From a virus (Duplodnaviria > Heunggongvirae > Uroviricota > Caudoviricetes): DNA of 64,000 bases. The notes beneath the pieces are model-generated. The model was not told the origin of the DNA. It searched no databases and saw nothing but the letters and a program-made list of their open reading frames with translations. Positions 30,442 through 59,608 of the stretch are shown in pieces. Positions within the stretch are counted from its first letter, which is position 1, and every line of letters starts with the position of its first letter. The stretch is from IMG/VR virus record IMGVR_UViG_3300028534_000514, positions 192,001 to 256,000 of that record; one strand, 5' to 3'. The translations under genes and the position numbers were made by a program.

Positions 30442-30651
30442 TTATATTTCTTTTTTATCATTTTTAAGGATATCGAAATAATCTTCGATGTCCTTAAAAG
30501 TTCGAAATATATAAATCTTTAAAGGATTATCTAGCTCTTGAACTAGATATCCTTCCGGTACTATAGTATATCGGACTTCCGTACCAAAAAAACTTTTTTG
30601 GGTAAAAAAAGAGATTTCTCCATATTTAAATTCTTCTTGTTCATTGCTCAT
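30442..30651 (-). CDS. Small hypothetical protein (likely start MSNEQEE)
   Basis: Overlaps the end of the polB palm gene. Confidence 0.6.
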   Translation of the reverse strand: MSNEQEEFKYGEISFFTQKSFFGTEVRYTIVPEGYLVQELDNPLKIYIFRTFKDIEDYFDILKNDKKEI

Positions 30652-31876
30652 ATTTTTTTTCCTTTTCACCAAGTATATTTACGGTTACCGCTTGGAATAA
30701 TTTAATACCGTATATCTTTCCTGCATTTGTAATTGCGTTTCCAATTAATGGGCTTGCGAATGGCCAAGTAATTAATCCAAAAATTCCGTAAGCAGAGTTT
30801 GCCGCAACTTTGATTCCCAATTGTACAATATTTAATTGGGATGTTCGTAGCACTGCGAATTGTTTTGGCTCCATTTTTAAATCTTTAAAAAACCATTCTA
30901 CATCAGTTAAAGCTTTTATTCTTTTTTCGCGCGGTTCGCCATCTTGAATATCAGTTAATATTCGATCGGCAGAACTTTTGGTTAGATGCTCACCGGCGTC
31001 TAAACTATAAATATCTTCTAAACTTTCCTTAGAGAGCTTATCCCAATGCTCAGTTATAGCCTCCAAAACTAACATTTGATTTTTAATTATTCTTCTTTTT
31101 GCAAGAGCCTCGATTAATAATCCGACATCGTACGCAAGATTATCTTCGTGCTTATCAAAAAGAATACCATACGGGTTAACAATATATTTTTTAAATAATG
31201 TTAATCCTTCTTCAAAAGTAAGTTTTTTAAATTTAAGTTTAGTTGAATTTACTTCCTCGAATATATAAATATCTCTTGGTTTTTGTAAAAACGTGTCGTT
31301 AAAAAATACATATTCAACCATCATTTGATTATAACCTCTATTCTGAGGACTTAACCATGTAATTGCCTCTAATAATGGGTATAAACAGCTTCTAAGTAGA
31401 TAATATGTTTTATCATCTTTTGGTTCAAAAATGTCCTCCAATTTCCCTTCATATCTTAAAATTTTTGAAAGAAGTTTTGGATAAAAAGCTAGCGTGAATT
31501 CACGAGCATCCTTTTTATTTTGAACACTTTTTGTTTTAAAATATTCTTTGAGTACTTGATCTAATGCATTTTCAAATCCGAATATGGCAGAATTGATAGC
31601 AGTCGGATCACTCTCTTTAATTTCAAATACTTTTTCTATTAATCCAATTATATTTTTAATGATAAATGGATCGTAAACTCTATGCCGAATTGTGTCAAAA
31701 CCAATATTACTAAATATGATTCCGGTTGGATATAGAGCTGCTGCATCATTTGAACTTATTAAAGTATTCTTATCGAGCCCAACAATTGATGGGACAGGCT
31801 GTTGGACATAAGCTCCAAGTACCTTTAAATGCCAACCATACAGCTTAATATTATCCAAATTTAATACGTCTTCGAT
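30641..31876 (-). CDS. Family B DNA polymerase, palm/fingers piece (motifs A and B); start uncertain (ATC 31876 or TTG 31858)
   Basis: GAYVQQP, DAAALYPT (motif A), KVAANSAYG (motif B), GNAITNAGK; no DTDS and no exonuclease domain. Confidence 0.85.
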   Translation of the reverse strand: MEDVLNLDNIKLYGWHLKVLGAYVQQPVPSIVGLDKNTLISSNDAAALYPTGIIFSNIGFDTIRHRVYDPFIIKNIIGLIEKVFEIKESDPTAINSAIFGFENALDQVLKEYFKTKSVQNKKDAREFTLAFYPKLLSKILRYEGKLEDIFEPKDDKTYYLLRSCLYPLLEAITWLSPQNRGYNQMMVEYVFFNDTFLQKPRDIYIFEEVNSTKLKFKKLTFEEGLTLFKKYIVNPYGILFDKHEDNLAYDVGLLIEALAKRRIIKNQMLVLEAITEHWDKLSKESLEDIYSLDAGEHLTKSSADRILTDIQDGEPREKRIKALTDVEWFFKDLKMEPKQFAVLRTSQLNIVQLGIKVAANSAYGIFGLITWPFASPLIGNAITNAGKIYGIKLFQAVTVNILGEKEKKYEQ

Positions 31877-31898
31877 TGGTTCCTCCTTATTTGATGGT

Positions 31899-31932
31899 TT
31901 GCTCTATTCGAGCAATTGCTCCTTTTGAGCAA
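31899..31932. promoter_or_regulatory. Perfect double palindromic site (TTGCT-N7-AGCAA)x2
   Basis: ttgct-ctattcg-agcaa-ttgct-ccttttg-agcaa, between the promoter motif at 31936 and the polB SD. Confidence 0.75.
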
Positions 31933-31935
31933 ACC

Positions 31936-31946
31936 ATATATTTATA
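31936..31946 (-). promoter_or_regulatory. Putative phage promoter TATAAATATAT
   Basis: Repeated intergenic 11-mer, upstream of the polB palm gene. Confidence 0.55.
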
Positions 31947-31950
31947 ATCT

Positions 31951-32838
31951 TTAACCGAAGATCCACATTTTAATTGTTTCGAAGAATCCTCTCTTTGTAG
32001 ATTTAACTCTTTGCTCATCATTAGTCAAAGATTTAGTTTCCACCGCGGATTCCTGCTTCTCATTTATTTTTAAATCAGGTTTATTGCTTTTATTTGCGGG
32101 TAATTTTCCTGTTGTAAGAATATACTTTCGGATTCTATTAGCCTCCATAAACATCTCTTTTTCATTTGAAAAATCTTTTTCAAATAGTTCAACTTTTTGC
32201 TGACCGTTGCTGGTTGTGATACGAACTAATAGTTTCGAACCCTTTTTAGTATTATAATATGTAAAATATCTTGGATCTAAAGTTAAACCCAATTCCTTAA
32301 TTTTTTCTTCGGCGCTATGTTTTCCTTTTTTCTTTTTAATAGCGGCTGATCTTGGGTTAACTATACCTTTATCAAGAGCCTCTTTAATTATTTTCTGAAA
32401 TGTTTCATCTTGTGGCTTACCAATATCAGTTAATTTCGGTGCGTTAGTTGTAATAGTAATTCCCTCCTCTCTTGGTTTTAATTCTGGGGGTTCTTTAAAA
32501 GGTTTAGCTAAATGGTGTTTGGTTTTTTTTCTATATCTCTTTTTCCAAATCTCTTTTGTTTTTTCTGCGTTAATAGCACGATTTAAAATCTGATTTCTTG
32601 CTTTTTTATCCGGTCGTTTTCCCGTTCTAGATATATAATTTCTAATACCTGCTGCCGCATAAAACATAACTTTATGATCTCCGGCTTTAGAAGCACTAAT
32701 ATAAACAGGTTTTCCTTCTTTGTCTTTAACATACGCTCTATCATCTTTTGATGCATAGTAAATACCGCTTGGATTAATTTCTGCTCCTGACTCTTTAATT
32801 CTTTTCAATGTCTCAGTATTTTTTCTTCCTCTTGCCAT
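31951..32838 (-). CDS. Very basic hypothetical protein, probably nucleic-acid binding
   Basis: 295 aa, K/R-rich; SD aagga. Confidence 0.75.
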   Translation of the reverse strand: MARGRKNTETLKRIKESGAEINPSGIYYASKDDRAYVKDKEGKPVYISASKAGDHKVMFYAAAGIRNYISRTGKRPDKKARNQILNRAINAEKTKEIWKKRYRKKTKHHLAKPFKEPPELKPREEGITITTNAPKLTDIGKPQDETFQKIIKEALDKGIVNPRSAAIKKKKGKHSAEEKIKELGLTLDPRYFTYYNTKKGSKLLVRITTSNGQQKVELFEKDFSNEKEMFMEANRIRKYILTTGKLPANKSNKPDLKINEKQESAVETKSLTNDEQRVKSTKRGFFETIKMWIFG

Positions 32839-32889
32839 TATAAATCCTTTTGGTTTTTTAGTTTTTTTAGTTTTTTATTATTAGCTTAA

Positions 32890-33336
32890 TTAAATTTGTG
32901 TTTTGTCATCAAGGTCAGAATGCCATGGACAGATTGATGAGTATATCTTATATGGTATACCACTTCTTTCCATATTATCCATCCGCGGACATTCACAACC
33001 AGGCATATCCAACCACCAATTATGGAAGGTTACATCCTGTGGAAATCCCCAGACTTTCTGAGCAGCGAATTCAAGATCAGTTAAATCCTCATCAAATTTT
33101 TCAACAATTTCTTTATCTTTATCATCAATGTAGCCTTTATCAGCAAATTCATATAATAATGATTTTGCCTCATTAAAAAGCTTAAGTTTTTGACCATGTA
33201 ATGAAAAAATTTCACCGACTTTTATTCTAGTTAGTCCTTGAGAATTAATTAATTCATTATTTAAAGTTATTCCATAACTGATCTCCGGAAGTTTTTTCCA
33301 TTTCATCACTGTATTTGGTGTTAGTGTTATTTTCAT
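32890..33336 (-). CDS. Phage hypothetical protein with a Cys/His cluster
   Basis: QKVWGFPQD..FH.WW..PGCECPRMDN...CPWH. Confidence 0.75.
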   Translation of the reverse strand: MKITLTPNTVMKWKKLPEISYGITLNNELINSQGLTRIKVGEIFSLHGQKLKLFNEAKSLLYEFADKGYIDDKDKEIVEKFDEDLTDLEFAAQKVWGFPQDVTFHNWWLDMPGCECPRMDNMERSGIPYKIYSSICPWHSDLDDKTQI

Positions 33337-33482
33337 TGTTATCCTTTTATTATTTTAAATTTTAACAATTCTGGTTTAATTTATCAAGTCCATTCGAAAT
33401 AATTATTATACGAACCTCCTTCTTTAAGAAACTGGTTTTTAAAAGAGTGTCTTCTAAAGATTAAGTAATTTTTCTATAATCT

Positions 33483-33698
33483 TTACCAATTTTCATATAT
33501 ATTTAGTAAGGCTGCAACTATTGAAAAGGATGTAATGAAAGTTAAAATTCCATAACCAATTCCATACTCTTGGAAAACAAAAGAGGTTCCCACTAAAATA
33601 CTAACAGCCAATACCATAATAAAAATCATTACAAGCGATATTTTTATACCAAATATAAAACCCTCCTTAAAATTTTTAAAAATTCTAATTTTTTTCAT
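33483..33698 (-). CDS. Small membrane protein (2 TM)
   Basis: Two hydrophobic segments; SD aggag. Confidence 0.7.
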   Translation of the reverse strand: MKKIRIFKNFKEGFIFGIKISLVMIFIMVLAVSILVGTSFVFQEYGIGYGILTFITSFSIVAALLNIYENW

Positions 33699-34216
33699 TT
33701 TATATCTCCTTTATTTTCTGATAGATAAATTCTTCTTTGACATGCACGAATTTTTGTCATGGTTAATGATACATCATTGTGTGTTAAACCAATCTGAGGA
33801 TTAATTTCAATAACATTAAGTTTATGTATTGTATCGCATTTTTCTCCACAAACATCATCTATCTCATCTTCCAGCACAACATAACACTTTACTTCTGGAT
33901 GAGAATTTAGGTACTCCTGTATCTCCTCTCCTCGATGCATTAAAACTGTAGTTTTACCTTCAACTCTATTCCAGTATTTAAATCCAGCTTTTTCCAGTTG
34001 TTCTTTTAAATCCTGCATATCATGACGCCAACTTGAACTAATAACAATATTTGCTTCAACCCGCTCAAGTAACCAATTCAAACGTTGAACCAGATGTGGT
34101 TCGATATACATAACCGAACCGTCGTTTTTATAAGTATTAGTATAATAACTTGGACTATTGATATTAACAACGCCATCAATATCTAAAAATATTACTGCTT
34201 TTATATTATCCTCCAT
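33695..34216 (-). CDS. HAD-superfamily protein (HAD_SAK_2-type)
   Basis: IFLDIDGV, IVISSSWR, RGEEI, VVLEDE, GLT. Confidence 0.85.
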   Translation of the reverse strand: MEDNIKAVIFLDIDGVVNINSPSYYTNTYKNDGSVMYIEPHLVQRLNWLLERVEANIVISSSWRHDMQDLKEQLEKAGFKYWNRVEGKTTVLMHRGEEIQEYLNSHPEVKCYVVLEDEIDDVCGEKCDTIHKLNVIEINPQIGLTHNDVSLTMTKIRACQRRIYLSENKGDIK

Positions 34217-34253
34217 ATTTTAATCCTTTTGGTTTATTCTAGAATTTCTACTG

Positions 34254-34454
34254 TTATTTTGATTTCCTTTCTATTTCATAAATTTCACGTATCTCATACA
34301 CAAGGCTAACCGGAATATTATAAATAGATGATATAATATCCGGATCCCCGACTGAGTTCGCTATTCTTTCGTACCAATTTTCTACATTTAAAGTTGGGTC
34401 ATCAAAAGCTATTTTTCTTAGTCTGTCTAAGACTATACTTTTTCTTGCTTTCAT
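34254..34454 (-). CDS. Hypothetical protein
   Basis: 66 aa, SD aggag. Confidence 0.65.
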   Translation of the reverse strand: MKARKSIVLDRLRKIAFDDPTLNVENWYERIANSVGDPDIISSIYNIPVSLVYEIREIYEIERKSK

Positions 34455-34465
34455 TAATTTCTCCT

Positions 34466-34897
34466 TTATAAAACTTGCATAATAATAATATCTAATTCGG
34501 ACAACGCCTTAAGATTTTCGAGATCAGCAACCCATATATTTTTGGTCGGATCAATAAAATCTTTTTCTAATTGGTCCCATTCTTTTTGAAATTTTGTATG
34601 CATTCCAAAGGCAACGTTAGCCTGATAACATCTGGGATTTAATTGAATACGAACTCCAGTCTTTTTAAAAAATTCATCCTTAATTTCATGATATCTTTTA
34701 CCTAATTCTGAGGCAATATCCAAAAAAATTTTATCTTCTATTGATACATTATCATAAAAAAGATCTCCCGGTTCTATACCATTTTCAAATCGATTTACAA
34801 TATAATCATTATCTATTGTTGGAACTTTTTTTTCTCTATCAAAAATCCAAGATACTGTCTTGGGCATATTTTCGATATTTTTTCTTCCGGTATCCAA
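34466..34897 (-). CDS. Hypothetical protein; start uncertain
   Basis: 143-aa ORF in operon orientation. Confidence 0.65.
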   Translation of the reverse strand: MDTGRKNIENMPKTVSWIFDREKKVPTIDNDYIVNRFENGIEPGDLFYDNVSIEDKIFLDIASELGKRYHEIKDEFFKKTGVRIQLNPRCYQANVAFGMHTKFQKEWDQLEKDFIDPTKNIWVADLENLKALSELDIIIMQVL

Positions 34898-34961
34898 GCA
34901 ATTACCATTGATTCCATTATTTCACCTTTAATATTTTTAAGACAAAAAATGAGGTTAGGGA

Positions 34962-35732
34962 TTATGTATCCCTAACCTCTCTTCTTATATCTGGATCGTT
35001 AAATTCACCACCATAATATTCAGTAGTAAACGAACCATCTTTTGCTTGAGAACCTCTAAGAGATTCACAGGTATGGCTTATATTTGCCAACTTAACATAA
35101 ACAGATTCTGTTTCAGCTGCTTCAGAAACAGCCTTAAATATTTCTTGAGTAAGTTCTTCTTGAAGCCAACCTCTTCTTGCAATCCAATCAACAACTCTTT
35201 GAAGTTTAGATATACCAAGGACTTTTTTATCAGGAATGTAACTGACAATAGCGTAAGCATCATCCCTAAAAAACGATGAAAAAGGTGCAATATGATGTGA
35301 ACAAACTGCGACTAAATCAACTCTTTTGGTGATAGGTAGCTTCTGCTTATGGGTATTGGGAAAACTCGCAATACGAGGCGGTTTTGTCCATCTACCACTA
35401 AGTAATTCCGCGTCATCACTCAGACTAGAACCCACCCACATTTTAGCAACACGACCCGGTGTACCTATATTGCCTTCAGACAACTCCTCAGTTGTATTTG
35501 CATCCTTTAAATCAATCTTCATAGCTTTAAAAGCGGCCGTAAGATGATATTGCGTAACAAGACGTACTATTAATTGAACTTCTTGATTATATACCTCCGT
35601 AACTTCGAATACATTTTGATTAAGACGAAACTCAGGAATTTCTAAATAAAGTTTCCATGCTTCCTCAAAAGGAATACTCCCCTTATATCTATTTTCTACG
35701 AATAATTTAATGTCATCATTAATTATTTCCAT
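34962..35732 (-). CDS. folE: GTP cyclohydrolase I
   Basis: TPGRVAKMW, CSHH, GISKLQR, QEELT, HTCESLRG. Confidence 0.95.
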   Translation of the reverse strand: MEIINDDIKLFVENRYKGSIPFEEAWKLYLEIPEFRLNQNVFEVTEVYNQEVQLIVRLVTQYHLTAAFKAMKIDLKDANTTEELSEGNIGTPGRVAKMWVGSSLSDDAELLSGRWTKPPRIASFPNTHKQKLPITKRVDLVAVCSHHIAPFSSFFRDDAYAIVSYIPDKKVLGISKLQRVVDWIARRGWLQEELTQEIFKAVSEAAETESVYVKLANISHTCESLRGSQAKDGSFTTEYYGGEFNDPDIRREVRDT

Positions 35733-36078
35733 CTAGTTCTTCCTCATTTAGGGTTGATGGGGATGTTGTTGTCTGGTCAATTGTATCCGGTTGTTCGGTT
35801 ACGGCCTTTTCAATAGTCGATACCAAGAAATCCATAACATCTTGAAGAACTTGTTTCGCTTCTTCATCAGTATATTCATCCGGACCTTCAAACATCATTT
35901 CCATAACATCTTCATCATCTTTGCGAGTAATTAACTTTATTACCACTTCAATTTCTGGATGTATATCATGTTTAATTCTAAAATCAATATCACCACTTTC
36001 CTGATCGGGAAGCATCTCAATAATTTCAAAATTGGAGTTCATCAACTCCTCCGTTACAAAATCTGTATTAACTGCCAT
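35719..36078 (-). CDS. Acidic hypothetical protein
   Basis: 119 aa, SD aagga. Confidence 0.75.
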   Translation of the reverse strand: MAVNTDFVTEELMNSNFEIIEMLPDQESGDIDFRIKHDIHPEIEVVIKLITRKDDEDVMEMMFEGPDEYTDEEAKQVLQDVMDFLVSTIEKAVTEQPDTIDQTTTSPSTLNEEELDGNN

Positions 36079-36088
36079 TTTTATTTCC

Positions 36089-36523
36089 TTAAACTAAATT
36101 TTCTAAATTATCAGGTCGTGTACTGTAGGGTACCTGGCCTAAATTCATTCTGCTATTATCATCTATATTTCTGTTATTATGTTTGGTACCATCAATCTGA
36201 ACACCATTCAATTCTTTATTCTCATCCGTCAACAATTTAATTTCTGTATAGTCATTACCATTTTTATAAATTCTAAATACATTTTCTTGTGGGAAAAATA
36301 CTATACTATTATTTAAGTTTTCGGTATTATCTATATATAATTCTGAGGTATTAGTCCCCATAAATATAATCCTTTTTGGATAACCAACGCCAGATTGATC
36401 AAGAATGTAATTATCTCTCACATCCGGAAAATCTTCAAAGCCATTAAAATTATATTCAATTTCCGGTCGTAAAATACTCTCCATATTATCCGGGGTTAAT
36501 CCTTCATTTATTAAACGAGCCAT
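36089..36523 (-). CDS. Hypothetical protein
   Basis: 144 aa; TAATG-coupled to the small upstream ORF. Confidence 0.75.
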   Translation of the reverse strand: MARLINEGLTPDNMESILRPEIEYNFNGFEDFPDVRDNYILDQSGVGYPKRIIFMGTNTSELYIDNTENLNNSIVFFPQENVFRIYKNGNDYTEIKLLTDENKELNGVQIDGTKHNNRNIDDNSRMNLGQVPYSTRPDNLENLV

Positions 36524-36660
36524 TATTTTTTAAACATTTTTTGCATAATCATATTGGCAAATTGATTCTGTTTATCGTGAATTGGATCAATCCACATTGG
36601 CCAGATAACACGCGCTGCTATAATACTAAGTCTAATTCGTTTTTTTGTCGGCTGTTCCAT
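36523..36660 (-). CDS. Small basic protein (45 aa) absent from the ORF track
   Basis: SD aagga + ATG; MEQPTKKRIRLSIIAARVIWPMWIDPIHDKQNQFANMIMQKMFKK; fills the gap exactly with a TAATG overlap. Confidence 0.6.
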   Translation of the reverse strand: MEQPTKKRIRLSIIAARVIWPMWIDPIHDKQNQFANMIMQKMFKK

Positions 36661-37117
36661 CTATTTCCTTTCCATAAAATTCTTTTATTTTTTGAATCTG
36701 TTTTATTTGGCATTCATCAATGCATTCAATAATATCTGGAACATTATCATGATATTTTTCATGACAATGTTTGCATAAAACAATATACATAACCTTTTTA
36801 TGAAAATGCAGATCCATAATTTCCTGACATATATCAAAATCCGTATAGTCATCTAGATTATTTAGATCAATGTGTTTTTGGAGCACACCTTCAACTATAT
36901 CAAAAAGTGTTTGCGGATGGTGATGAGTTTCTGGTTTTACATATTCGAAACTTTCCCCACATGTGGGGCATTCGCTTACCGCGTATTTGGTACGCTTTTG
37001 CCAGCTATCGTAACTCATACTTTTCCTAACTAAAAACTCTAATTGTTTTATACATCTGACAAATTGTGCTTCATTACCCATATCATATTTATACCAAATA
37101 GGACTACCCGATGCCAT
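36632..37117 (-). CDS. HNH-fold zinc-binding protein
   Basis: CPTC...ETHHHP...LCKHCHEKYH. Confidence 0.65.
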   Translation of the reverse strand: MASGSPIWYKYDMGNEAQFVRCIKQLEFLVRKSMSYDSWQKRTKYAVSECPTCGESFEYVKPETHHHPQTLFDIVEGVLQKHIDLNNLDDYTDFDICQEIMDLHFHKKVMYIVLCKHCHEKYHDNVPDIIECIDECQIKQIQKIKEFYGKEIDGTADKKTN

Positions 37118-37952
37118 TTACAATCCTTTTATATGAATCATTTAACATATATTTCAAACGCGTATAATTTTGAATATTATTAATAATATATCCATTAAAC
37201 TTTTCGTCAGTTATTTCTTCGATATAATCATTATTAATTACACCGTCCTGCTTGGAAATAAAAATTTTCGCAGAGAATGGTTGTAAATAATATTTCTTAT
37301 GATTATTTTTATCAATAAAAATAAATAAAATTTGATTTCTTTTTTTTAAAAGACTTATATCAAATAAAATCAATTCCTGTTCGTCAATAATTTTTTGGGT
37401 TATTTCTCTTAAATAAATACCATTTTTAGGAATCTCTTTTTTCTTTTTGCTATCTTCCTGTTCCAATATAGCCTTAATGAATTTTTTATCTTCTTGAGTA
37501 GTTGCCTGTCTGACAGCAGCTTTTGTTGCCTTCTGTCTCTTATAGGATTCCTGGGAAGCTATGGCTCCAAATTTGCGCCTAAGGATAATCTCTTTTCCCC
37601 TCGCATTTCCCTCATCATAATCTTCTTTCTCCATAATCTCTTTAATTATATCTGGTTTAAAGGTCGGCATCTTTTGATATAGATCCCATTTTGTAATACC
37701 TCTAATTTTAAAAAGTTTTTTTAAGAAATAAAGATGTTCTATCGGATCAGGAATTGAAAATAAATCATTTGTAAATTTATTAAGATAATTTACTAGATTT
37801 GGATTTAACCATAATTGCTCCGTTATATAAGGAACTAATGAATTAAGTTTATTTTTCTGTTCGAGGAATCGTTCTGGGATTTGGTCATCTGGACCAATAA
37901 GCCAATTTACTATTTCATATATTTTAATTGGTTTTTGTTTTTCCTTTGACAT
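37104..37952 (-). CDS. Hypothetical protein; C-terminus may resemble the PolB N-terminal domain
   Basis: 282 aa, TAATG-coupled; see findings. Confidence 0.7.
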   Translation of the reverse strand: MSKEKQKPIKIYEIVNWLIGPDDQIPERFLEQKNKLNSLVPYITEQLWLNPNLVNYLNKFTNDLFSIPDPIEHLYFLKKLFKIRGITKWDLYQKMPTFKPDIIKEIMEKEDYDEGNARGKEIILRRKFGAIASQESYKRQKATKAAVRQATTQEDKKFIKAILEQEDSKKKKEIPKNGIYLREITQKIIDEQELILFDISLLKKRNQILFIFIDKNNHKKYYLQPFSAKIFISKQDGVINNDYIEEITDEKFNGYIINNIQNYTRLKYMLNDSYKRIVNGIG

Positions 37953-38179
37953 TATGCCGAACCTTCAAGCATTCCTTCGTTAAATGAATTCATATGTGTT
38001 AGCTCAAGTAGATTAAGAAGAGCCTCTTTATCGCCTGATAAAGCTTTATCCGCCAAATCAGTAACAGCCTGATTCCAATCACTAAAATCGAATTCAGGGT
38101 GCATTGTTTCAAATACCATTTTTACCATATCCGATTCTGGGATATATCTTTGTAGATCTGCGTATTGCTCTTGTGTCAT
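37952..38179 (-). CDS. Hypothetical protein
   Basis: 75 aa, SD aagga. Confidence 0.7.
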   Translation of the reverse strand: MTQEQYADLQRYIPESDMVKMVFETMHPEFDFSDWNQAVTDLADKALSGDKEALLNLLELTHMNSFNEGMLEGSA

Positions 38180-38191
38180 TTTAAATCCTTT

Positions 38192-38866
38192 TTATTGATA
38201 GGTATTTTTATTAAAATTGTGGTTTGCTATTAAATTTGGACGTTTTGTCCCTTTATGAAATGAAAGAAAATCTGTCAGATCAATAGTATTAGTAATTGGA
38301 TCATAAGCGAAACTGCCGACCCAATTATCGGTATCCTCCCCAAATTCAGCATATGGGTATTCAAAACCATATGATTTGTATTTATCCCCTTCAGCTATTG
38401 ATCGAATAGGAGCCGAAGCTTTAAATTTTCTAAGTTTATAGGTAGGACATATTTTAACCTTTACTACTTCATTGTAATTATCTTGATCTTTTTTCCCAAA
38501 AAAAGATTTTTGTAATACAGCGTAATAATGTGAACTTGATAATGATAAACCAGATTCTTTAAGAATTGGACTACCATCCTCTCGATTACCTATTACCCTA
38601 TGAGTTTCTACAAAAAACTTTTTACTTGGATTTCCTGTATATTTTATCTCGAGGAGGGTACCGTCTCTATATTGAACATCCCATTCCGGTGCATAACCAG
38701 ACGATAAAGATAATATTTCAGAATTAAAAGCGTCCTTTAATAGATTACCAACCCTCTCTTCAAACCAAGTATGAAAAATAGTAGTTCTTGGGTCATCCCA
38801 ATTATTTAAAAGTTCGATTGGGGCTTTATTATCTATAAGCCAAGGGCAATCTGTTGAAGAGTTCAT
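38192..38866 (-). CDS. PD-(D/E)xK nuclease-like protein
   Basis: FEE...PEWDV...LLEIKY...FFVET. Confidence 0.6.
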   Translation of the reverse strand: MNSSTDCPWLIDNKAPIELLNNWDDPRTTIFHTWFEERVGNLLKDAFNSEILSLSSGYAPEWDVQYRDGTLLEIKYTGNPSKKFFVETHRVIGNREDGSPILKESGLSLSSSHYYAVLQKSFFGKKDQDNYNEVVKVKICPTYKLRKFKASAPIRSIAEGDKYKSYGFEYPYAEFGEDTDNWVGSFAYDPITNTIDLTDFLSFHKGTKRPNLIANHNFNKNTYQ

Positions 38867-39498: not shown

Positions 39499-39499
39499 T

Positions 39500-51197: not shown

Positions 51198-53291
51198 TTA
51201 AGTACTTGGGTCAACTGGTAAAATTCTAAAAATCATTGTTGGTTTACCGAGAACATGCTCATATGATTTAAAATCTGCTACAGCAGCCCCTTTACCGTTG
51301 GTAACTGTAGAATGCATAAATTGTGTATTATCTAACGCTATACCAGTATGCCCATTATCTCTCCCTTGGCTATGGAAGAATACAATATCTCCTGGTTGTA
51401 TCTTATCAACACTTTCAACAAGAACGACACCATTTGATTTATATTTCATAAACCAGTTTGTCTGGTTAATTGTTCCATCAGGATATGGTTCTTTTCCTCG
51501 ATCAGCTCCAGCGGCACGGACGGCTCTCATTGTGAAATTAGAGCAATCACTTTGAGCATAGGTAAATCCTTGTTTAATTAATTTTGCACCCTCAACCGCT
51601 ATCTGTGTATTTGCAGACGAATTTGGTCCGGCAACCGGGATAGAATCAAGATCTATATTTACGGAATGAGCTGGATCTCCACAGAGTATATCTGAAGTAT
51701 TATTATATAACTGCTGTTCAGTCAGAGTAGCTTCTTGATAAGGACTATTACGTGTAGTTGTAAAATATTCAGCAAGAGTATTTGGAGCCTTATCTACCAT
51801 TAAAAAAGAAATCTCAGTTTCTAATGAAAACACTGGAGTAATTAATTGTTCTGCCTCAGAGGCATTCTGTTTTTCTTTTAATAGATTCAGGATGGCGTCT
51901 GTAGGTTTTACTTGTTTAAAAGTATGAGATACTTGATAACCGGTTCCAATCCGATCATATTTATTACCGCTTGGTTTTTCATAAACCTCATATTCATTAA
52001 ATACCTCTGCTTTTAAGGAAACGACAGTATGTAAATCAATTTGTCCAACCCAAAGATTATTGAAACTATAAGTTACAATATCTGGATGCAAACTCATAAA
52101 AATATTATAAAAGGTTTGCATCTGTTGAATCTCTTCGCTAGAAAGAAATGTTACATAATATTTATACATTGGGTTGCTCATTTTTTTAAGCTTAATATAA
52201 CCATTGGTACTAGTTAAAACATAATTATGTTTGTGAACCTGGTTCCAAACCCCAAGATTAATTGGATTTCCAGTAACCATGTCTTCTGCATATATTTTCG
52301 GAAAATTATCGCGAAACATATATCGCCCAGTATTAAAGTAGGTATCTCTTTTAATCATTTTAAAATCGACTGATTTAAAAGATTCCATTGTTGTTTCGAC
52401 ATTATCAGATGATTTGCCCATCATAAAGTTAGATAATTGAATATCAGTATACGGTTCCCATGTTTGATATTTAGCAAGATCTAGGATCTTAATAACACTC
52501 GATCTTTCGCTAAGATGACCATCATTTTTTGTACTAAAATCATCAATAACCCAAGCATATGGTGTTTTAAAAAGAGGATACTGGTCGAAAAAATAACCTA
52601 ATACCTCAAAATTAGTATTGGCTTCCATCTGATACCCAGTCACAGGCGCACTATTAATTATAGAATCGCTCCCAACTTTATTTGGAGTATAATCAAGATC
52701 CAACATTATATTTGAATTTGAATTATTTGCAGGTTGAGGGGTATATGTTTCAGTTAAAGTTTTACCAAAATCACCAAGTAAAAAATCTAAAGGTTTTTGA
52801 CCAGTTCCTAATGGATCAAATTGCGGGCTTTTTCCACCAAGGGTAAATGCAAAATTATTTTCTACTTTCATGCGCTCCAATGTTATAGAACTCAATGTCA
52901 ATGTTGTTTTTAAAGCAGGATATGTACCTGCAACCCTTGAAACTGTTGGTGGGGGATTTAAATCAGTACACATAAAAAAGTTTGCAAATTGGGCGTTACC
53001 CGAACTACTTTTTACAAGTGGTTCGACCAAAATATAAACCAACATTTTGCCTTCTGCAAGAGCAGAAGCAGTATTATTATCCATATCAATAACATGCAAA
53101 CGAACACGGGTGTCATTTGTAGCATATGATTTAAAAATTTCTAATTCAAGGATTTGATTTGGGGTTATAGTCGACGATTGCTTAGAAAGCAAATCACCGT
53201 CCGATGCCCGGATTTCCTGGTACATCGGATTCGGTATTACCTCAACTTTTATCTCATTAAATTTAAAGTCGACGTTTGTATTTTGTGGCAT
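51198..53291 (-). CDS. Probable tail/baseplate-hub protein with C-terminal NlpC/P60 hydrolase
   Basis: DCSNFT, PGDIVFF, HTGI, FMHS; long N-terminal region; adjacent to the lysozyme-like gene. Confidence 0.7.
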   Translation of the reverse strand: MPQNTNVDFKFNEIKVEVIPNPMYQEIRASDGDLLSKQSSTITPNQILELEIFKSYATNDTRVRLHVIDMDNNTASALAEGKMLVYILVEPLVKSSSGNAQFANFFMCTDLNPPPTVSRVAGTYPALKTTLTLSSITLERMKVENNFAFTLGGKSPQFDPLGTGQKPLDFLLGDFGKTLTETYTPQPANNSNSNIMLDLDYTPNKVGSDSIINSAPVTGYQMEANTNFEVLGYFFDQYPLFKTPYAWVIDDFSTKNDGHLSERSSVIKILDLAKYQTWEPYTDIQLSNFMMGKSSDNVETTMESFKSVDFKMIKRDTYFNTGRYMFRDNFPKIYAEDMVTGNPINLGVWNQVHKHNYVLTSTNGYIKLKKMSNPMYKYYVTFLSSEEIQQMQTFYNIFMSLHPDIVTYSFNNLWVGQIDLHTVVSLKAEVFNEYEVYEKPSGNKYDRIGTGYQVSHTFKQVKPTDAILNLLKEKQNASEAEQLITPVFSLETEISFLMVDKAPNTLAEYFTTTRNSPYQEATLTEQQLYNNTSDILCGDPAHSVNIDLDSIPVAGPNSSANTQIAVEGAKLIKQGFTYAQSDCSNFTMRAVRAAGADRGKEPYPDGTINQTNWFMKYKSNGVVLVESVDKIQPGDIVFFHSQGRDNGHTGIALDNTQFMHSTVTNGKGAAVADFKSYEHVLGKPTMIFRILPVDPST

Positions 53292-53300
53292 AGAAATCCT

Positions 53301-54131
53301 TTAATCAAGTTTTCTATCGATATGAATCCTTGGACTATATCTAATTCCCAATTCAAGAGCTTTTCTTGAGGTGGCATCCTTCGATTTATTCCAGAATTCA
53401 GCATCTTCCCCAATTGGATCATTTGGGGTAAATGGCATGAGCATGATGTTTTTACGCTCAACATTTAACTCATCTAATAGATAATCAATAAATATTTTTT
53501 CGTGCTCAAAATCAATAATTTCTTCTGTAAAATCATAAATAAATTTAAAATAAACAGGGTATTGTCTTAGATAATCAGCGATATTTTTAAAAGTATCAAA
53601 ATACATTTTATCTACTTCCTGCTGGGTTAATTGATCTTCGTAGCATGTTTTAGCATCCAATTTAGGACTGACTGTTAGAGTCGGCACCACATCAAATTCA
53701 GAAATAATTTCATTAAAACTCTGAATAAGATGCATGCAGTTTTCTTTATCTTTTAGAAGATTCCCATTCGATTCAATACCAAAGAAATCTAATCCAACTG
53801 GCGAGATGGAATTAACCCACCTAAAAATATCTGGAAAATGCTCCATAAAATGCAGGGGTTCCCCTCCGGTAACGGTCATTCTTTTCGGAGTCATTACCTG
53901 AAGCTGTTCTGCTAATTTAATGGTAATACCTCTGCCGGCCAGTTCATCAAAATTAGGGGCTTCCCCCCAAGAGAATTTTGTGTCACAAAAAGAACAGGCT
54001 GCGGAGTAACATCCTGCGAGTCGAATATAAATAGATGGTTGTCCGATCGCGTCGCCTTCTCCTTCTAACGATACGAACCATTGAGATATTTTTGGAGGGT
54101 TTGTACTCAGATCAAAGTTAAGTTGTTTCAT
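53301..54131 (-). CDS. queE: 7-carboxy-7-deazaguanine synthase (radical SAM)
   Basis: SLEGEG...G.P.IYIRLAGC-YSAA-CSFCDT, TGGEP, ESNG, SPK, SPRIH; start MKQLNF with SD aagga. Confidence 0.9.
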   Translation of the reverse strand: MKQLNFDLSTNPPKISQWFVSLEGEGDAIGQPSIYIRLAGCYSAACSFCDTKFSWGEAPNFDELAGRGITIKLAEQLQVMTPKRMTVTGGEPLHFMEHFPDIFRWVNSISPVGLDFFGIESNGNLLKDKENCMHLIQSFNEIISEFDVVPTLTVSPKLDAKTCYEDQLTQQEVDKMYFDTFKNIADYLRQYPVYFKFIYDFTEEIIDFEHEKIFIDYLLDELNVERKNIMLMPFTPNDPIGEDAEFWNKSKDATSRKALELGIRYSPRIHIDRKLD

Positions 54132-55149
54132 TATTATCCTTATGTTTATGTAGTATGTCTTCTTTAAAGAATTCAGTCCGTCCACCTTTAGTTTCAGGCC
54201 AGCTGGGGTTCTCGCATCTATATGGTGCAAAAGCTTCTAATATTTCTTGTTCAGCTAGATATGCGTCCAAGCCGTTATCAAAATGGGTTTGCTCTAATAT
54301 AGCAATTGCTCTGTTTGAGCAAAACTCTTTACCGAAACGTTCTTCTACTGTTTTATTTGTAATGCCTATTTTATATAGATCTTCTTGTGGATCGTATAGG
54401 TAATATAAAACAGCTGGAACGTCTGGATTAAAACAAGATTTTTTATAGGTTATATCAATAGAAAATTTTCTTATTGTTGTATATGCAAAATCTGCGGAAC
54501 ATGAATAATATTCCATAAATTTTTTTATATCTAGATGATTATCATCATCAATAAAATTATCAATAATAAATTGTTTATTAATATCCTTTACATTAGCAAG
54601 TTTTTTTTGCATAACGTTAGAACCAAGTCCAGACTCAAGTAATTTTTGATTGGTGGTCTCTCTTGTTTTTTCTTTTTTATCTTTAATATACTCGAGTTTA
54701 CTGATATTATCAACACCATATTTTTCACGGACTGTTTGTTTAACCTGTAATTGTTTATCCGGATTTTCAAAATTAGTTCGGTAACCGGTACGTGTTAAAC
54801 ACGCTTTTTCTCTGGCTAATCTATGTAATCGTTTATAACATTCTATATGTTCATCATCTTTTTTATTACATAATAATTTGAAGTATCCTGCACTCCTAGT
54901 GGTTCTTTCCCGAGGATTATTGCATCCATTAACAGGACATTTCCAATCGTTTTTGATACCACTTTCGATAACATATAATCTATATATCAGATCCATATCT
55001 TCCGGGAGAAATGATGTCAATTCCTTTAATTTTTTTTCATACATTTTAAATTTCGATAGCCGCTCGTCCTCCCATTTTTTAGAAGGTTTTATAAGTTGAC
55101 CAGTGTTATTAATAAATCCATCTTTTTTTAGTGATGATATAATATCCAC
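54118..55149 (-). CDS. Free-standing homing-endonuclease-like protein with C-terminal GIY-YIG/T5orf172-type domain
   Basis: CPVNGC, repeats such as KQTVREKYGVDN, then LYYL...YKIGIT...EERF...EQEIL...GGRTEFF. Confidence 0.7.
   Translation of the reverse strand: MDIISSLKKDGFINNTGQLIKPSKKWEDERLSKFKMYEKKLKELTSFLPEDMDLIYRLYVIESGIKNDWKCPVNGCNNPRERTTRSAGYFKLLCNKKDDEHIECYKRLHRLAREKACLTRTGYRTNFENPDKQLQVKQTVREKYGVDNISKLEYIKDKKEKTRETTNQKLLESGLGSNVMQKKLANVKDINKQFIIDNFIDDDNHLDIKKFMEYYSCSADFAYTTIRKFSIDITYKKSCFNPDVPAVLYYLYDPQEDLYKIGITNKTVEERFGKEFCSNRAIAILEQTHFDNGLDAYLAEQEILEAFAPYRCENPSWPETKGGRTEFFKEDILHKHKDNNETT
54289..54322. promoter_or_regulatory. Perfect double palindromic site inside a CDS
   Basis: ttgct-ctaatat-agcaa-ttgct-ctgtttg-agcaa. 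Confidence 0.7.
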
Positions 55150-55212
55150 GTTTTTTCCTTAATAATAACTTGCGGTAACATATAATTTAGATGCTTGCTA
55201 ATAAATAGCAAA

Positions 55213-55677
55213 TTAATCCCAAAATTTTCTATGGTGTCTATCTAGCCTACTAAAAAACCTTTTGGAACGTTTTTTATACTCTTCATTGTATCCATCTTTA
55301 AATTCATTATCATCATCTAGCATCCATTCTAAATCAGCTATAAGATCTTTGAGAACATCTTTTTCTTTATAATCGTTGACATAATGAGTATCTCTGCCCC
55401 AATGCTCCTCCATATCCCGAAGTTTAAATCTAAGCATTTCCAGTAGATAATAATAATCCCACCATCGATCTTTCCAGATAATTTTTCGCCATTTCCAAAG
55501 ATTAGAAATACCTTTTTTAAATGATCGAGTTGGATATATAATTGAATGATTCCACCAATAATTAATATTAAATTTAAGTTCTTCCCACCATTTTTTATAA
55601 AAAGGCAGTTGAGGTTCATCCGTTGTCTCGAGATTTTCAATCCACTTTAAAATATCTTTTTCTTTAAATTCATTCAT
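55213..55677 (-). CDS. Trp-rich phage hypothetical protein
   Basis: NLWKWRKIIWKDRWWDY...KFWD. Confidence 0.75.
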   Translation of the reverse strand: MNEFKEKDILKWIENLETTDEPQLPFYKKWWEELKFNINYWWNHSIIYPTRSFKKGISNLWKWRKIIWKDRWWDYYYLLEMLRFKLRDMEEHWGRDTHYVNDYKEKDVLKDLIADLEWMLDDDNEFKDGYNEEYKKRSKRFFSRLDRHHRKFWD

Positions 55678-55679
55678 TT

Positions 55680-56750
55680 TTATTCCTCCAATGGATAAAA
55701 TATTTCTCTTCCGAATGTTTTGGTTCTTACCGCCTGATTTCTTCTGGTATATATTAAATCATTTCTATATCTATACATAATTGATCTTCCTCTAATAGCA
55801 GAGCCAATTGGGGCGTCATTATATTTGGCAAGCATCCAATTTAATTCTAGAAATTGCAATTTTTCGTCTAGCTTAAAAGTTAAAAGAGTATCCAGAAGGT
55901 TATATGCTAAAAATCTAGGAAGATCTTCCTGATAAACTCTATTCATATCATCAAGATCTAATTTTTTAATTTTAAGTTCAACCTCTGCAACAGTATCCAA
56001 TTTATAATTTGGAAGAGATTTACCGAGTCCATTACCACCTTGATCCACCGGTTTATAAAGTGTCAGTAAATCAACTTTGGTATAGTCAGGCCACTCATAA
56101 GATAATTCACCAAATTTCTGAACTTCACCAAATTCCGACATATAGTCGTATATTGATTCTCCAATAAGGTTTAATCCTCTATTTACAACATACGGGTCAT
56201 CAAATAAACTACTATTGAATCCAATTAAAAATAAGGAATATACCTCTCTAAGATATAAGAAAAAAGCGGCTAATAATTCGCTCTCGTTTTTAAAAACCCG
56301 TACTTCGATTTCAAGCCCATCAATATCATACGTTTGATTTTCAGTAACCAGATCCGCATAAATCTTTTCCACTTCAACCTGAAGAGTTTCCTGTTCAATA
56401 ATATTACAGGTACCCTGTTTGCCTGTAACAGGATGTGTCCAAAATGGACATGTAAAAATAACTGCTTTATTCTTAAGATTATTATAAACAGCAATCGAGT
56501 TAACCATATATGCAGCTTTCTTAGAATCTGGGAATACCGAGGGATCATAAAATACCTCGATATCGTAATAGGATTTATTCAATATTTTCTTAGTTGAATC
56601 CCCTTCTTTAAAGTTTAGCATATATTCTTGAAACTGATATTCGTCCGCACTAAAATCAATATTATAAAATTGATAAAATTTTAAATCATTTCTTTTAAGT
56701 GCTCCAAATAGTTTTTTAACCCCATCCGTATCAATTGTGGAGAAATTCAT
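55680..56750 (-). CDS. Family B DNA polymerase, 3'-5' exonuclease piece
   Basis: ExoI YYDIEV, ExoII GFNSSLFDDPYVVNR, VDLLTLYK, YKLDTVA, ExoIII YNLLD. Confidence 0.85.
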   Translation of the reverse strand: MNFSTIDTDGVKKLFGALKRNDLKFYQFYNIDFSADEYQFQEYMLNFKEGDSTKKILNKSYYDIEVFYDPSVFPDSKKAAYMVNSIAVYNNLKNKAVIFTCPFWTHPVTGKQGTCNIIEQETLQVEVEKIYADLVTENQTYDIDGLEIEVRVFKNESELLAAFFLYLREVYSLFLIGFNSSLFDDPYVVNRGLNLIGESIYDYMSEFGEVQKFGELSYEWPDYTKVDLLTLYKPVDQGGNGLGKSLPNYKLDTVAEVELKIKKLDLDDMNRVYQEDLPRFLAYNLLDTLLTFKLDEKLQFLELNWMLAKYNDAPIGSAIRGRSIMYRYRNDLIYTRRNQAVRTKTFGREIFYPLEE

Positions 56751-57540
56751 TATTTGCTACCGCTTCTGATAAAATATCAGTTACTTGTTCCATAGCTTCA
56801 TTCTGTTCTTCGATGATATCAGCCATAACATCAATGCCAAAAATGAAAGATTCGGAAATACTCGAAACTTTAATACCTTGTTTTTTTGCAAGTTTTTTGG
56901 CTTTTTTTAGGGCTTTAAGATACCTTTTGGCAGGAATCATAATACCGTCGATATTAACATGTGTTGCTATTCCACGTTCGCACATTTCTTTTGCACCAAA
57001 CCACCATTCTTTTCCATCCAACATCTTTTGCATTTCCGTTTCGGATAGTCCGATAACATGTCCTCTAAAAAACGAAGTTATATTTTTGGTTATATGTTTA
57101 AGATGATCCTTCATTTCATGGCCCTTACCAATAATTCCACCACTAAAATTATGAAACATTAAACTTGAATTTTCGTAAATAATTCTTCTATCGCCAATAC
57201 AAAACATAATGGCTGCCATGGAGGACGCCTCTGATAAAAGTTCAGTTTGAATATCTGCGCCGGTATTCTTAACCGCATTAATAATTGCTCTTCCTTCAGA
57301 AACTAGCCCGCCAGGACTATTAAAAATAAGGGTAATTCTATCATCAGGGGTTAGTTGCCGAATATCCTCTAATAGTACCGCCAGACTTGGTTTTGATTCA
57401 GTAAACGTTGAAAGATAAAAAACAGCCGATCTAATAATTGGAATATTAATTTTATACTTCGGTATTTCCTTAAGAAACCAAACATGCTTTTCTCCGCTTT
57501 TTGGTGCATTTGTCGGTCTATTTTCATTTTTTCTACTCAT
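56731..57540 (-). CDS. ClpP-like serine protease
   Basis: FNSPGG.V.EG, ASSMA (Ser), MFH (His), EWWF. Confidence 0.85.
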   Translation of the reverse strand: MSRKNENRPTNAPKSGEKHVWFLKEIPKYKINIPIIRSAVFYLSTFTESKPSLAVLLEDIRQLTPDDRITLIFNSPGGLVSEGRAIINAVKNTGADIQTELLSEASSMAAIMFCIGDRRIIYENSSLMFHNFSGGIIGKGHEMKDHLKHITKNITSFFRGHVIGLSETEMQKMLDGKEWWFGAKEMCERGIATHVNIDGIMIPAKRYLKALKKAKKLAKKQGIKVSSISESFIFGIDVMADIIEEQNEAMEQVTDILSEAVANNEFLHN

Positions 57541-58321
57541 TTATGTCCTTTGGGTTTTCTTTGTAAATTGAATCTTCAAATAAAAATTTATGCTCTGGTG
57601 GTAATGAATCGTAGACTTCATATGCAAGATCTCGAATCTCCCAGAGTGCTGCTTTATTGGTGCGAAGTGCTAAAAAATTCTGAAGGGATCTAGCATTGAT
57701 CGACCAAGCGAGCTCCGTCTTATAATTCTCGGGAATAGCATACTTAGCAATATCATTTGAAATACCTTTTTTAATAAGCCGTCTTAAATCTTCGAGATGA
57801 TGAAAAACAATTTCATCAACATCTGAATCCCCTGTCCATACTAGATATTTACTAGCTCTCTCATAATCTTTTATATGATGATAATCGTTAAACGATTCTT
57901 CATTCTTAAGTTCTTTGAGGGTGTAACGTGTTGATTTAACGCTTGGACTTGCTATTCGATGTCTAGCCAGTTCTTGAAGACAAGCGCGTGATATGCCACT
58001 AATATGAAAGTTATAATATAGATGTTCAAGAGTACTAGCATGCTTGAATTTATTACCAACCCTATCTATTAAGGCCTTATCAGATTCTCCTGTTTTTTTA
58101 TAAAAAGAAACATCACCTGATTTACACTTAGGGCAGTAATGTCTACCAAATTCATCATACGGAAATTCTCCTTCGTTTATTGGTGAAATAAACCCGCAAT
58201 CTGCACATTCATATACTTCTTGTGTATCACTTTTATCGAACGATGCCCAACAAGTTCGTGTGCCATCCGCAGCCACCCACAGGGGTGTATGATGCAATAA
58301 TTCTACTTCGCATTGTTTCAT
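57533..58321 (-). CDS. thyX: Flavin-dependent thymidylate synthase with zinc-ribbon insertion
   Basis: KHASTLEH, SRACLQELARHR...SVKSTRY, NARSLQNFLALR, WEIR. Confidence 0.95.
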   Translation of the reverse strand: MKQCEVELLHHTPLWVAADGTRTCWASFDKSDTQEVYECADCGFISPINEGEFPYDEFGRHYCPKCKSGDVSFYKKTGESDKALIDRVGNKFKHASTLEHLYYNFHISGISRACLQELARHRIASPSVKSTRYTLKELKNEESFNDYHHIKDYERASKYLVWTGDSDVDEIVFHHLEDLRRLIKKGISNDIAKYAIPENYKTELAWSINARSLQNFLALRTNKAALWEIRDLAYEVYDSLPPEHKFLFEDSIYKENPKDINE

Positions 58322-58455
58322 TGTCTTTCCTTTCTAAAATCTTTACAACTATCTTTTTTATCCATACTGATATTATGCAATTTGCAATAAACATAAGATT
58401 TATTATAAATTAATTCTGAATGGCGGCAATTAGCGCATATCTTTTCAATATTCAT
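58318..58455 (-). CDS. Small four-cysteine protein (45 aa) absent from the ORF track
   Basis: MNIEKICANCRHSELIYNKSYVYCKLHNISMDKKDSCKDFRKERQ; overlaps both neighbours (ATGA with thyX). Confidence 0.65.
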   Translation of the reverse strand: MNIEKICANCRHSELIYNKSYVYCKLHNISMDKKDSCKDFRKERQ

Positions 58456-58642
58456 CTGATTCCTTCTTTTTAATTTCTCTTTCAAATATTGTATCATAAA
58501 TAAGTTCGGCCATCTTTATATCAAATGAACTACCGTATTTAGATTTCATGCTGAATAGAACACTTGACTTATTTTTCCAAGTATTTAATCCAAATTTTTT
58601 AAAATTATCTTCCATAATTTCAGACAATTTTTCAAATGTCAT
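58445..58642 (-). CDS. Small hypothetical protein
   Basis: 65 aa, SD aagga. Confidence 0.65.
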   Translation of the reverse strand: MTFEKLSEIMEDNFKKFGLNTWKNKSSVLFSMKSKYGSSFDIKMAELIYDTIFEREIKKKESDEY

Positions 58643-58657
58643 TTTATATTTCCTTCA

Positions 58658-58668
58658 ATATATTTATA
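58658..58668 (-). promoter_or_regulatory. Putative phage promoter TATAAATATAT
   Basis: Repeated 11-mer, upstream of the thyX-clpP-exonuclease unit. Confidence 0.5.
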
Positions 58669-59608
58669 TAGCGAGTCTTATTGTCTCTTCGCTAAAAAGT
58701 TTTTTAAATTGATCAAGTTTTTTATTTACATTAAAATCAAGAATAGTTCTTAAATCAAATTGTATATTATTTTCTTGAAATATTCTTCTAGCCTCTTCGA
58801 TATCGGACTCTGAGCCAAAATCAGTTGGCCAGGAAAGGGTATTAGTTTTAGATGTTATTAACTCCTTCGGTATTTGGTATTCCGTACTCGGAGATTTTTT
58901 ATCCATTTCCTGCAGTAATTTTTCAGGATTAATAATAATCTGAGTTTGAAGAATACTTTCACCGGGTCTAAAAATATCTCGAAATAAATAATTATAGAGC
59001 ATTGCGCCTTCGACCTGTTTTGGTATGGTTTTAAGGGTTTTAAGACTCCATTTCTTTGGAATTCCAAATTCATGAACATTGAACGTCTCAACAGCTTTTT
59101 CAACTCGCTTTATGTATTTTTGGCGAATATCAAAAAATATTTTACGATAGAGTTCTATTTCGTTTACAATACTAAAATCTAACAATAAAACATTATAAAC
59201 TTCTGTTAGCAAGTCCAAAACTATAGGGGTTGAATCAGCTTTTACAATTTGACCCCCAGTTTTTTTAACTTCTGGTGGATCATAAAAGGTACCCTCATCC
59301 CATAATTTTGTCAATCCATAATATTTTTTAGCATTAAAAAATCCACGGTAGGCTACAATTTCTGATTTGAAATCCATAAAATTATATTTTGGATCAACAT
59401 TTCCAAATTTAACAACAGTATCATTAAATATTTTCATATATGCTTCATTCAATTCGTGGGCTATATTCTGAGCATATTCTACAGTTTTATGTTGATCCTC
59501 GAATTTATCGAATGGTAGAGGTACCATAGAATAACTGGAGTCTGTATCACTATATAATGTAAATTTACTGCCGTCAACCTTCTCAATAAATCCTGGTTCA
59601 AGTATCAC
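58664..59608 (-). CDS. Family B DNA polymerase, C-terminal piece (motif C + thumb)
   Basis: LYSDTDS, FKSE, AKKYY, KKTGGQIVKADST, GAMLYN. Confidence 0.85.
   Translation of the reverse strand: MILEPGFIEKVDGSKFTLYSDTDSSYSMVPLPFDKFEDQHKTVEYAQNIAHELNEAYMKIFNDTVVKFGNVDPKYNFMDFKSEIVAYRGFFNAKKYYGLTKLWDEGTFYDPPEVKKTGGQIVKADSTPIVLDLLTEVYNVLLLDFSIVNEIELYRKIFFDIRQKYIKRVEKAVETFNVHEFGIPKKWSLKTLKTIPKQVEGAMLYNYLFRDIFRPGESILQTQIIINPEKLLQEMDKKSPSTEYQIPKELITSKTNTLSWPTDFGSESDIEEARRIFQENNIQFDLRTILDFNVNKKLDQFKKLFSEETIRLAI

Follow-up and report, generated by a model that had tools for sequence, protein, structure and literature searches.

Here, we report that a virus of the Caudoviricetes encodes its family B DNA polymerase (PolB) in three separate genes, and that the enzyme is probably a T4/RB69-type replicase built from three separately translated chains that assemble non-covalently. 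The genes lie in a stretch of 64,000 nucleotides, hereafter the window, which covers bases 192001-256000 of the 281,455-bp IMG/VR record IMGVR_UViG_3300028534_000514 (G+C 33%), a genome rated as 100% complete by CheckV. In textbooks, family B polymerases are single-chain machines. In sequence and structure, all three pieces matched gp43 of RB69 and T4 best, a protein that has the same domain order and the same Exo I-III, A, B, C and KKxY motifs. However, gp43 is one chain of ~900 amino acids (aa), whereas the pieces found here, termed A, B and C, measure 356, 405 and 314 aa and are encoded out of order (C, A, B) with B dispersed. A first-pass annotation of the window had proposed three open reading frames (ORFs) for the polymerase, and ORF calls and translation located all of them on the minus strand. 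They are listed below in window positions, followed by their motifs as read in a translation check. Relative contigs and loci are labelled G and L, and relative proteins P.

58664-59608, minus strand: piece C, second half of the palm and thumb, 314 aa (RB69 gp43 alignment)
55680-56750, minus strand: piece A, reduced N-terminal domain and 3'-5' exonuclease, 356 aa (Pfam PF03104, RB69 alignment)
30641-31858, minus strand: piece B, first half of the palm, an extra segment of ~160 residues and the fingers, 405 aa from a TTG (family profile)
56556-56564, in piece A: Exo I, DIE
56199-56216, in piece A: Exo II, NSSLFD
55890-55904, in piece A: Exo III, YNLLD
31727-31747, in piece B: motif A, DAAALYP
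30785-30811, in piece B: motif B of the fingers, KVAANSAYG
59537-59554, in piece C: motif C, YSDTDS
59318-59329, in piece C: KKYY, the KKxY primer-contact motif
within 58667-58723, in piece C: conserved C-terminal tail KKLDQFKKLF

Read as transcribed, C comes first, then A, then B, with gaps of 1,913 bp between C and A, 23,821 bp between A and B and 26,805 bp between C and B. The genes had been described as unlinked and up to about 27 kb apart, which holds for B alone; C and A belong to one compact gene string on a single strand, with 1.9 kb between them, and in most relatives the two genes adjoin or overlap. The assignment of the two catalytic aspartates to different polypeptides was borne out by the translations, the motif A aspartate being D38 of B (in DAAALYP) and the motif C aspartates D21 and D23 of C (in YSDTDS).

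The relation to gp43 was evident for pieces A and C individually. Piece A matched Pfam PF03104 (DNA_pol_B_exo1) above the cut-off (5.9e-9) and aligned to RB69 gp43 105-355 (E 1e-12). It contains the gp43-type signature of Exo I (DxE), Exo II (NxxxFD) and Exo III (YxxxD), and D63, E65, N179, D184, Y283 and D287 were invariant in the alignment with 16 homologues (alignment A2). Piece C aligned to RB69 gp43 611-756 by phmmer and, over residues 8-303 (94% of its length), to T4-like gp43 by tblastn; the gp43-type motif C (DTDS), KKxY and thumb were all found in it, with S24, K94 and K95 invariant (alignment A3). For piece B, a profile of 16 homologues matched family B polymerases with motif A at RB69 393-432 and the fingers at RB69 476-591, and the same profile matched T4 gp43 at 376-430 and 467-591. 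The gp43-type signature of motif A (DxxSLYPS) and motif B (KxxxNSxYG) was found in this piece, where D38, L42, Y43, P44, K350, N354 and G358 were invariant (alignment A1). A phmmer search of the PDB with piece B alone matched no polymerase.

The structural models agreed with these assignments. The AlphaFold2 model of A had a confident core of approximately residues 55-315 that matched RB69 96-357 (VIA; Z 26.2, root-mean-square deviation (rmsd) 3.2 Å over 247 residues). A natural head-to-tail fusion of B and C, the 745-aa protein P0114 (42% identical to B and 49% to C), occurs in three assemblies (cluster members P0384 and P0385). Its AlphaFold2 model, with a mean predicted local distance difference test score (pLDDT) of 87.5, matched RB69 385-896 (Z 21.4, rmsd 5.0 Å over 444 residues); the alignment used for this fold (A4) misplaces the last ~35 residues of the rows containing B only, and the model is still confident. 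Since the one model matches RB69 96-357 and the other 385-896, gp43 is tiled by A, with the N-terminal and exonuclease domains, and by B plus C, with the palm, fingers and thumb, without overlap and with nothing left over. All parts of the gp43 fold, namely N-terminal domain, exonuclease, palm, fingers and thumb, were found in this way, those of B and C by proxy of the 42-49% identical relative. Compared to gp43 the N-terminal domain is shorter, and the ~160 extra residues of B lie between motifs A and B and are helical in the P0114 model. The cut between A and B falls in the linker that connects the N-terminal domain with the palm. The junction of B and C is in the P0114 model a loop (residues 416-427) that leads from the long helix following motif B into the hairpin of motif C, and motifs A and C therefore fall on different chains. 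Taken together, sequences and models identify the pieces as a T4/RB69-type family B DNA polymerase with predicted polymerase and proofreading activity.

The proposed architecture is as follows. Chain B would bring the aspartate of motif A together with the first strands of the palm and the fingers, which bind the dNTP, and chain C the motif C aspartates, the KKxY primer contact and the thumb, so that B and C would jointly complete one palm and one active site, like the two subunits of PhiKZ. Chain A would carry the N-terminal domain and the proofreading exonuclease, and would dock through its end segments (residues 1-54 and 317-356), which correspond to the two halves of the RB69 N-terminal domain. 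Both segments are conserved, with Y29, N30, G321, R322, S323, R342 and E349 invariant in alignment A2. The earlier claim that the palm must assemble in trans therefore stands as to the separation of the motif A and motif C aspartates, whereas we infer the physical assembly itself.

No other polymerase was recognized in the genome. PF00136 and PF03104 each gave a single match, at pieces B and A, and the Pfam search returned neither DNA_pol_A nor DNA_pol3_alpha in the whole genome. By tblastn with the three pieces and T4 gp43, no second copy of any piece or of gp43 was detected in the genome. The suggested check for an intact polB elsewhere accordingly came out negative by Pfam and tblastn, each piece being present as a single copy and no other polymerase being matched. 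When eight T4 replication and recombination proteins were searched against the genome by tblastn, the sole matches were one to gp43, in its exonuclease part, and a weak one to gp47.

The three-gene arrangement is conserved. Piece B had homologues in 113 clusters at 32-83% identity, nearly all of 400-460 aa with the same ends; stand-alone A was found in at least 158 clusters (~345-370 aa), and most of the top 90 representatives in the C search (50% clustering) were stand-alone C of ~280-350 aa. Intact gp43-like proteins (830-870 aa) appeared in the C search only at E ~1e-10 and weaker. The catalytic residues were invariant down to 32% identity in B and down to ~43% within the alignments of A and C; for C the conservation extends to even lower identity. 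Three long viral contigs contained exactly one A, one B and one C each:

G001: C, A and B all on the same strand, 18 kb between A and B
G002: C and A overlapping by 4 nt, B 38 kb away
G004: C and A 13 nt apart, B 72 kb away on the other strand

In all 13 metagenome loci with enough upstream DNA, C was located directly upstream of A on the same strand, and B was absent from the flanks (up to 6 kb) in 12 of the 13. In 50,697 GenBank phage records no match was obtained with piece B or with two stand-alone C proteins taken from other branches, and no cultured relative is available. The labels of the pieces in public records are piecemeal ('DNA polymerase elongation subunit', '3'-5' exonuclease' or none); because of this labelling, and because B falls under the Pfam cut-off, polymerase surveys and marker-gene trees of jumbo phages will miss or mis-score this clade.

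The evolutionary history of the three genes may be traced through the relatives. The distant locus L039 (~29% identity) has two genes (L039:1-3728): an intein-bearing C and, 5 nt further on, an 809-aa ORF that combines the exonuclease with the palm and fingers and has an intein in motif A. Since L039 has C followed by A plus B, the order with C first and the B/C cut appear to be old, and the A/B cut is probably younger. A quick maximum-likelihood tree of 109 C domains placed the C of the window in a clade of 16 rows with a Shimodaira-Hasegawa-like approximate likelihood ratio test (SH-aLRT) value of 99, and L039 in a separate clade of 65 rows. P0114, the sister of the trio containing the window (SH-aLRT 87, moderate), is the only fused row in the former clade; all others stand alone, some of them with an intein. 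This suggests that P0114 is a secondary re-fusion of two fission products, as a single re-fusion is more parsimonious than several identical fissions. The sequence of events would then be a fission at the B/C loop giving the order C, A+B, a fission at the linker between N-terminal domain and palm, and finally the dispersal of B. We lean, by a modest degree, towards a broader proposal: that there is a large and wholly uncultured clade of jumbo phages with an obligate three-chain PolB and permuted genes, in which the fissions proceeded from C and AB to C, A and B, followed by at least one later re-fusion of B and C, and in which proofreading could be dosed or exchanged apart from synthesis.

Several observations weigh against a three-chain replicase. 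The binding among the three chains and the enzyme activity are predictions. Piece B is divergent, its match to PF00136 (DNA_pol_B) reaching only 1e-4, under the gathering score, so that it is recognized only through the family profile, and its start codon is uncertain. For B and C, the structural evidence derives from a fused relative with 42-49% identity and not from the chains of the window themselves, and the proposed docking ends of A (1-54 and 317-356) are simply of low confidence (pLDDT <50) when A is folded alone. No gp45-type sliding clamp was found in the genome with the Pfam gp45 clamp families, and because of this a clamp-binding role for the KKLDQFKKLF tail of C remains speculative. 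In several relatives, A and B are followed by small conserved ORFs, which might encode extra subunits. A complex prediction for the three chains, with C limited to residues 1-238 and A set as the partner, gave scores of 0.10 and 0.09 (mark 0.32), which we counted neither for nor against.

The low confidence of the terminal segments of A in isolation would also suit an enzyme in which B and C form a two-chain core without exonuclease, while A acts as a free or transiently bound proofreader, like epsilon with Pol III alpha. The continuity of B and C is backed independently by the P0114 fusion and that of A with them is not, and one NCBI record of a metagenome-assembled genome labels a homologue of A as '3'-5' exonuclease'. 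We nevertheless consider a loosely bound A unlikely: A has kept the two halves of the N-terminal domain, a domain that packs on the palm in RB69, and these segments are among its most conserved parts, the A gene adjoins or overlaps the C gene in most relatives, and in the 29% identical L039 A is covalently fused to B. Joining of the pieces into one chain by RNA trans-splicing or by split-intein protein trans-splicing deserves attention because relatives use inteins in these same genes (C of G002 has a split intein, P0118 and P0125 each have an intein at motif C, and L039 has one at motif A). In the window, however, neither Intein_splicing nor Hint was matched on A, B or C at E<=0.1 by Pfam, although the same model detects inteins in the relatives. 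When mapped onto T4, A has only ~17 residues to spare at its tail and C ~10 at its head, which is too short for intein halves, and the breaks lie away from the intein insertion sites. Rfam found no group I or II intron in the window, its sole match there being one tRNA, and each piece has its own start and stop, conserved in more than 100 clusters. Protein or RNA trans-splicing is for these reasons highly improbable, and the first-pass statement that the pieces show no intein ends and leave no room for introns was upheld, the pieces being non-colinear with protein genes between them. As the pieces have no intein parts and the breaks avoid the intein sites, the joining must be non-covalent. Splicing in cis is ruled out by the order C, A, B, the gaps of 1.9 and 23.8 kb and the ThyX and ClpP-like genes between C and A.

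That the three ORFs are decaying remnants of polB, with replication left to a host polymerase or an unrecognized phage enzyme, is scarcely more probable than splicing. The position of piece B under the Pfam cut-off and the failure of Pfam to detect a gp45-type clamp would fit such decay; against it stand catalytic residues invariant to 32% identity, lengths and ends conserved in hundreds of clusters, the retention of all three genes in every sufficiently long relative, and an in-frame B and C fusion in three assemblies. A chimeric or mis-joined contig that scatters a single gene is still less credible, to the point of being negligible. The record is a metagenome assembly flagged as 'provirus' in IMG/VR, yet the three-gene layout recurs in G001, G002, G004 and 13 metagenome loci, and a shared mis-assembly is excluded by the identities of 29-75%.

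Three candidate classes related to splicing were rejected on the same results. A gene interrupted by group I or II introns does not fit, as there is no intron core and the pieces stand in scrambled order, separated by 1.9-24 kb that contain coding genes. The split-intein PolB of the Nanoarchaeum equitans or fractured-gene type was discarded since A, B and C have no intein halves, and dead-intein clasps at the broken ends were dismissed by the T4 mapping, the ends being too short.

Two-part, split-intein and 'fractured' PolBs are documented (PMC2988022, PMC2677866, PMC5434244, PMC6892783, PMC13648687, PMC10189870), and the first-pass annotation was right that two-part forms occur in phages and archaea, as in Aeromonas phages 25 and 44RR, PhiKZ and Methanothermobacter thermautotrophicus. 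According to PMC2988022 and PMC2677866, gp43A and gp43B of Aeromonas phages 25 and 44RR (Petrov et al. 2006) constitute a T4-like PolB in separate cistrons without protein splicing, and those of phage 25 are reported to co-purify and polymerise (PMC2988022). As described there, the two genes share a locus with 2-3 kb between them, taken up by an untranslated spacer or by a gene for a GIY-YIG endonuclease, whereas here there are three pieces with the C-terminal one first and the middle one 24-72 kb off in the phage and its relatives. In PhiKZ, cryo-EM showed DNAP-N (gp82) and DNAP-C (gp50) as a stable 1:1 complex with an interdigitated interface and an RB69-like fold (bioRxiv 2026, PMC13648687). 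The PhiKZ genes are likewise unlinked and their motif A and motif C aspartates also lie on different chains (PMC13648687), so this feature is in itself not new. However, PhiKZ has two chains, the exonuclease being fused to motif A, the cut falling in a large palm insertion after motif A and the fingers going with motif C; here, one cut precedes motif A and the other separates motif B from motif C. For M. thermautotrophicus and the group B1 magroviruses, which belong to archaeal or archaeal-virus lineages, PMC2677866 and PMC5434244 report a two-gene fission in the catalytic domain without inteins, with two pieces and no third cut described. Split-intein or 'fractured' PolBs are represented by Nanoarchaeum equitans, by Dassa et al. 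2009 (PMC2677866) and by the PolB16 intein of a sheep-gut metagenome (PMC10189870). The likeness to these lies in the inteins at motifs C and A of the relatives, while the pieces of the window have none. A place in the class of two-gene split PolBs was also rejected, as three cistrons are needed here; a two-cistron form exists in the distant L039.

A search of the open-access literature found no three-part family B polymerase, although absence there is not proof. Since the published two-chain PolBs of Aeromonas phage 25 and PhiKZ work, the assembly of three chains is plausible, and the conserved, order-scrambled three-gene PolB extends the known two-part forms. Natural two-chain PolBs were shown structurally only recently, in PhiKZ, and a conserved three-chain form would mean that the PolB tolerates two further cuts, at the linker between N-terminal domain and palm and in the loop before motif C. 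These are natural break points for the engineering of split polymerases. If the exonuclease is indeed a separate chain, proofreading could be dosed or exchanged independently of synthesis. The family is also a rare one in which successive fissions, a scrambled order and a probable re-fusion can all be traced.

The end of B given as 30641 was correct; its other limit, placed at about 31876, was only approximate, as the open frame reaches ~31903 and the first canonical start is the TTG at 31858. A strong Shine-Dalgarno-like AAGGAGG is located ~22-28 nt upstream of this TTG, but 5 nt before an in-frame ATC (region 31859-31903). The homologues of B begin a few residues ahead of the position of the TTG, and the true start codon may be non-canonical. 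Upstream of B, a pattern search revealed a candidate regulatory site:

31899-31932, 40 nt upstream of the B start in a 92-nt intergenic gap: tandem palindrome, two copies of TTGCT-N7-AGCAA

A similar double site (62705-62738) precedes by 97 nt the 918-aa ORF at the head of the gene string with C and A, but lies inside the 3' end of the preceding ORF. Double palindromes occurred 20 times in the genome, nine of them intergenic. Co-regulation of the two polymerase loci by the tandem palindromes is a possibility. Scans for sigma-70 promoters and terminators at both loci performed no better than on shuffled sequences.

We noticed a related double palindrome in the coding sequence of a T5orf172/MUG113-type (GIY-YIG-like) gene (54118-55149, minus strand), two genes downstream of A. 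Near-identical double sites were present at genome positions 148010, 149081, 246289, 260597, 268444 and 269505, five of these being additional to the site of the gene itself; their occurrence at five other positions suggests a multi-copy family of endonuclease-like genes that could drive gene fission.

The inteins of the relatives take several forms. In G002 (L017:800-2385), C is broken by a split intein into an ORF with the N-extein and the N-terminal intein half, a 61-aa ORF with a CxxC, and an ORF with the C-terminal intein half and the rest of C. Pfam Intein_splicing was matched at positions 5-93 by one ORF and at 132-155 by the following one, and the polymerase of G002 is in consequence spread over four genes. 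Full inteins are inserted between DTD and S of motif C in P0118 and P0125, and the intein of P0151 has a LAGLIDADG domain. The first 187 residues of P0149 end in a manner that fits the C-terminal intein motif and resemble the atypically split PolB16 intein (PMC10189870). The polymerase of the clade is an intein hot spot and, given the inteins at motifs C and A, the gene family is a hot spot for fission by mobile elements.

The genes between C and A are not polymerase parts:

56731-58642, minus strand: a 65-aa ORF, ThyX and a ClpP-like protease (Pfam Thy1 7e-39, CLP_protease 7e-16)

The ThyX and ClpP-like genes are also present upstream of A in L024-L026 and G001 (L012, L015), and are found between C and A wherever the contig has C. 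This insertion is confined to the nearer relatives of the window; C and A are adjacent in the other relatives. The ThyX (57533-58321, minus strand) has an N-terminal extension with CxxC...CxxC (CADCGF...CPKC), zinc-ribbon-like by eye, and Pfam Thy1 covers only residues 77-239. Directly after A follows a W-rich ORF of 154 aa (55213-55677, minus strand), which is in the same place in at least seven other contigs and matched only viral hypothetical proteins in the ESM Atlas. Slightly downstream of B is an ORF of 76 aa (30200-30430, minus strand), coiled-coil-like by eye, also present in G001, G003, G005, L008 and L010. These two ORFs could encode accessory subunits or reflect mere synteny.

Finally, a gene for a 6-pyruvoyl-tetrahydropterin synthase (QueD-type, Pfam PTPS 2e-17) was identified just downstream of the polymerase genes in L039 (L039:4883-5680), and ORFs that by eye are QueE-like follow piece A in G001 and G002. 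Judging from these positions, deazaguanine-pathway genes tend to lie beside the polymerase genes in the clade.

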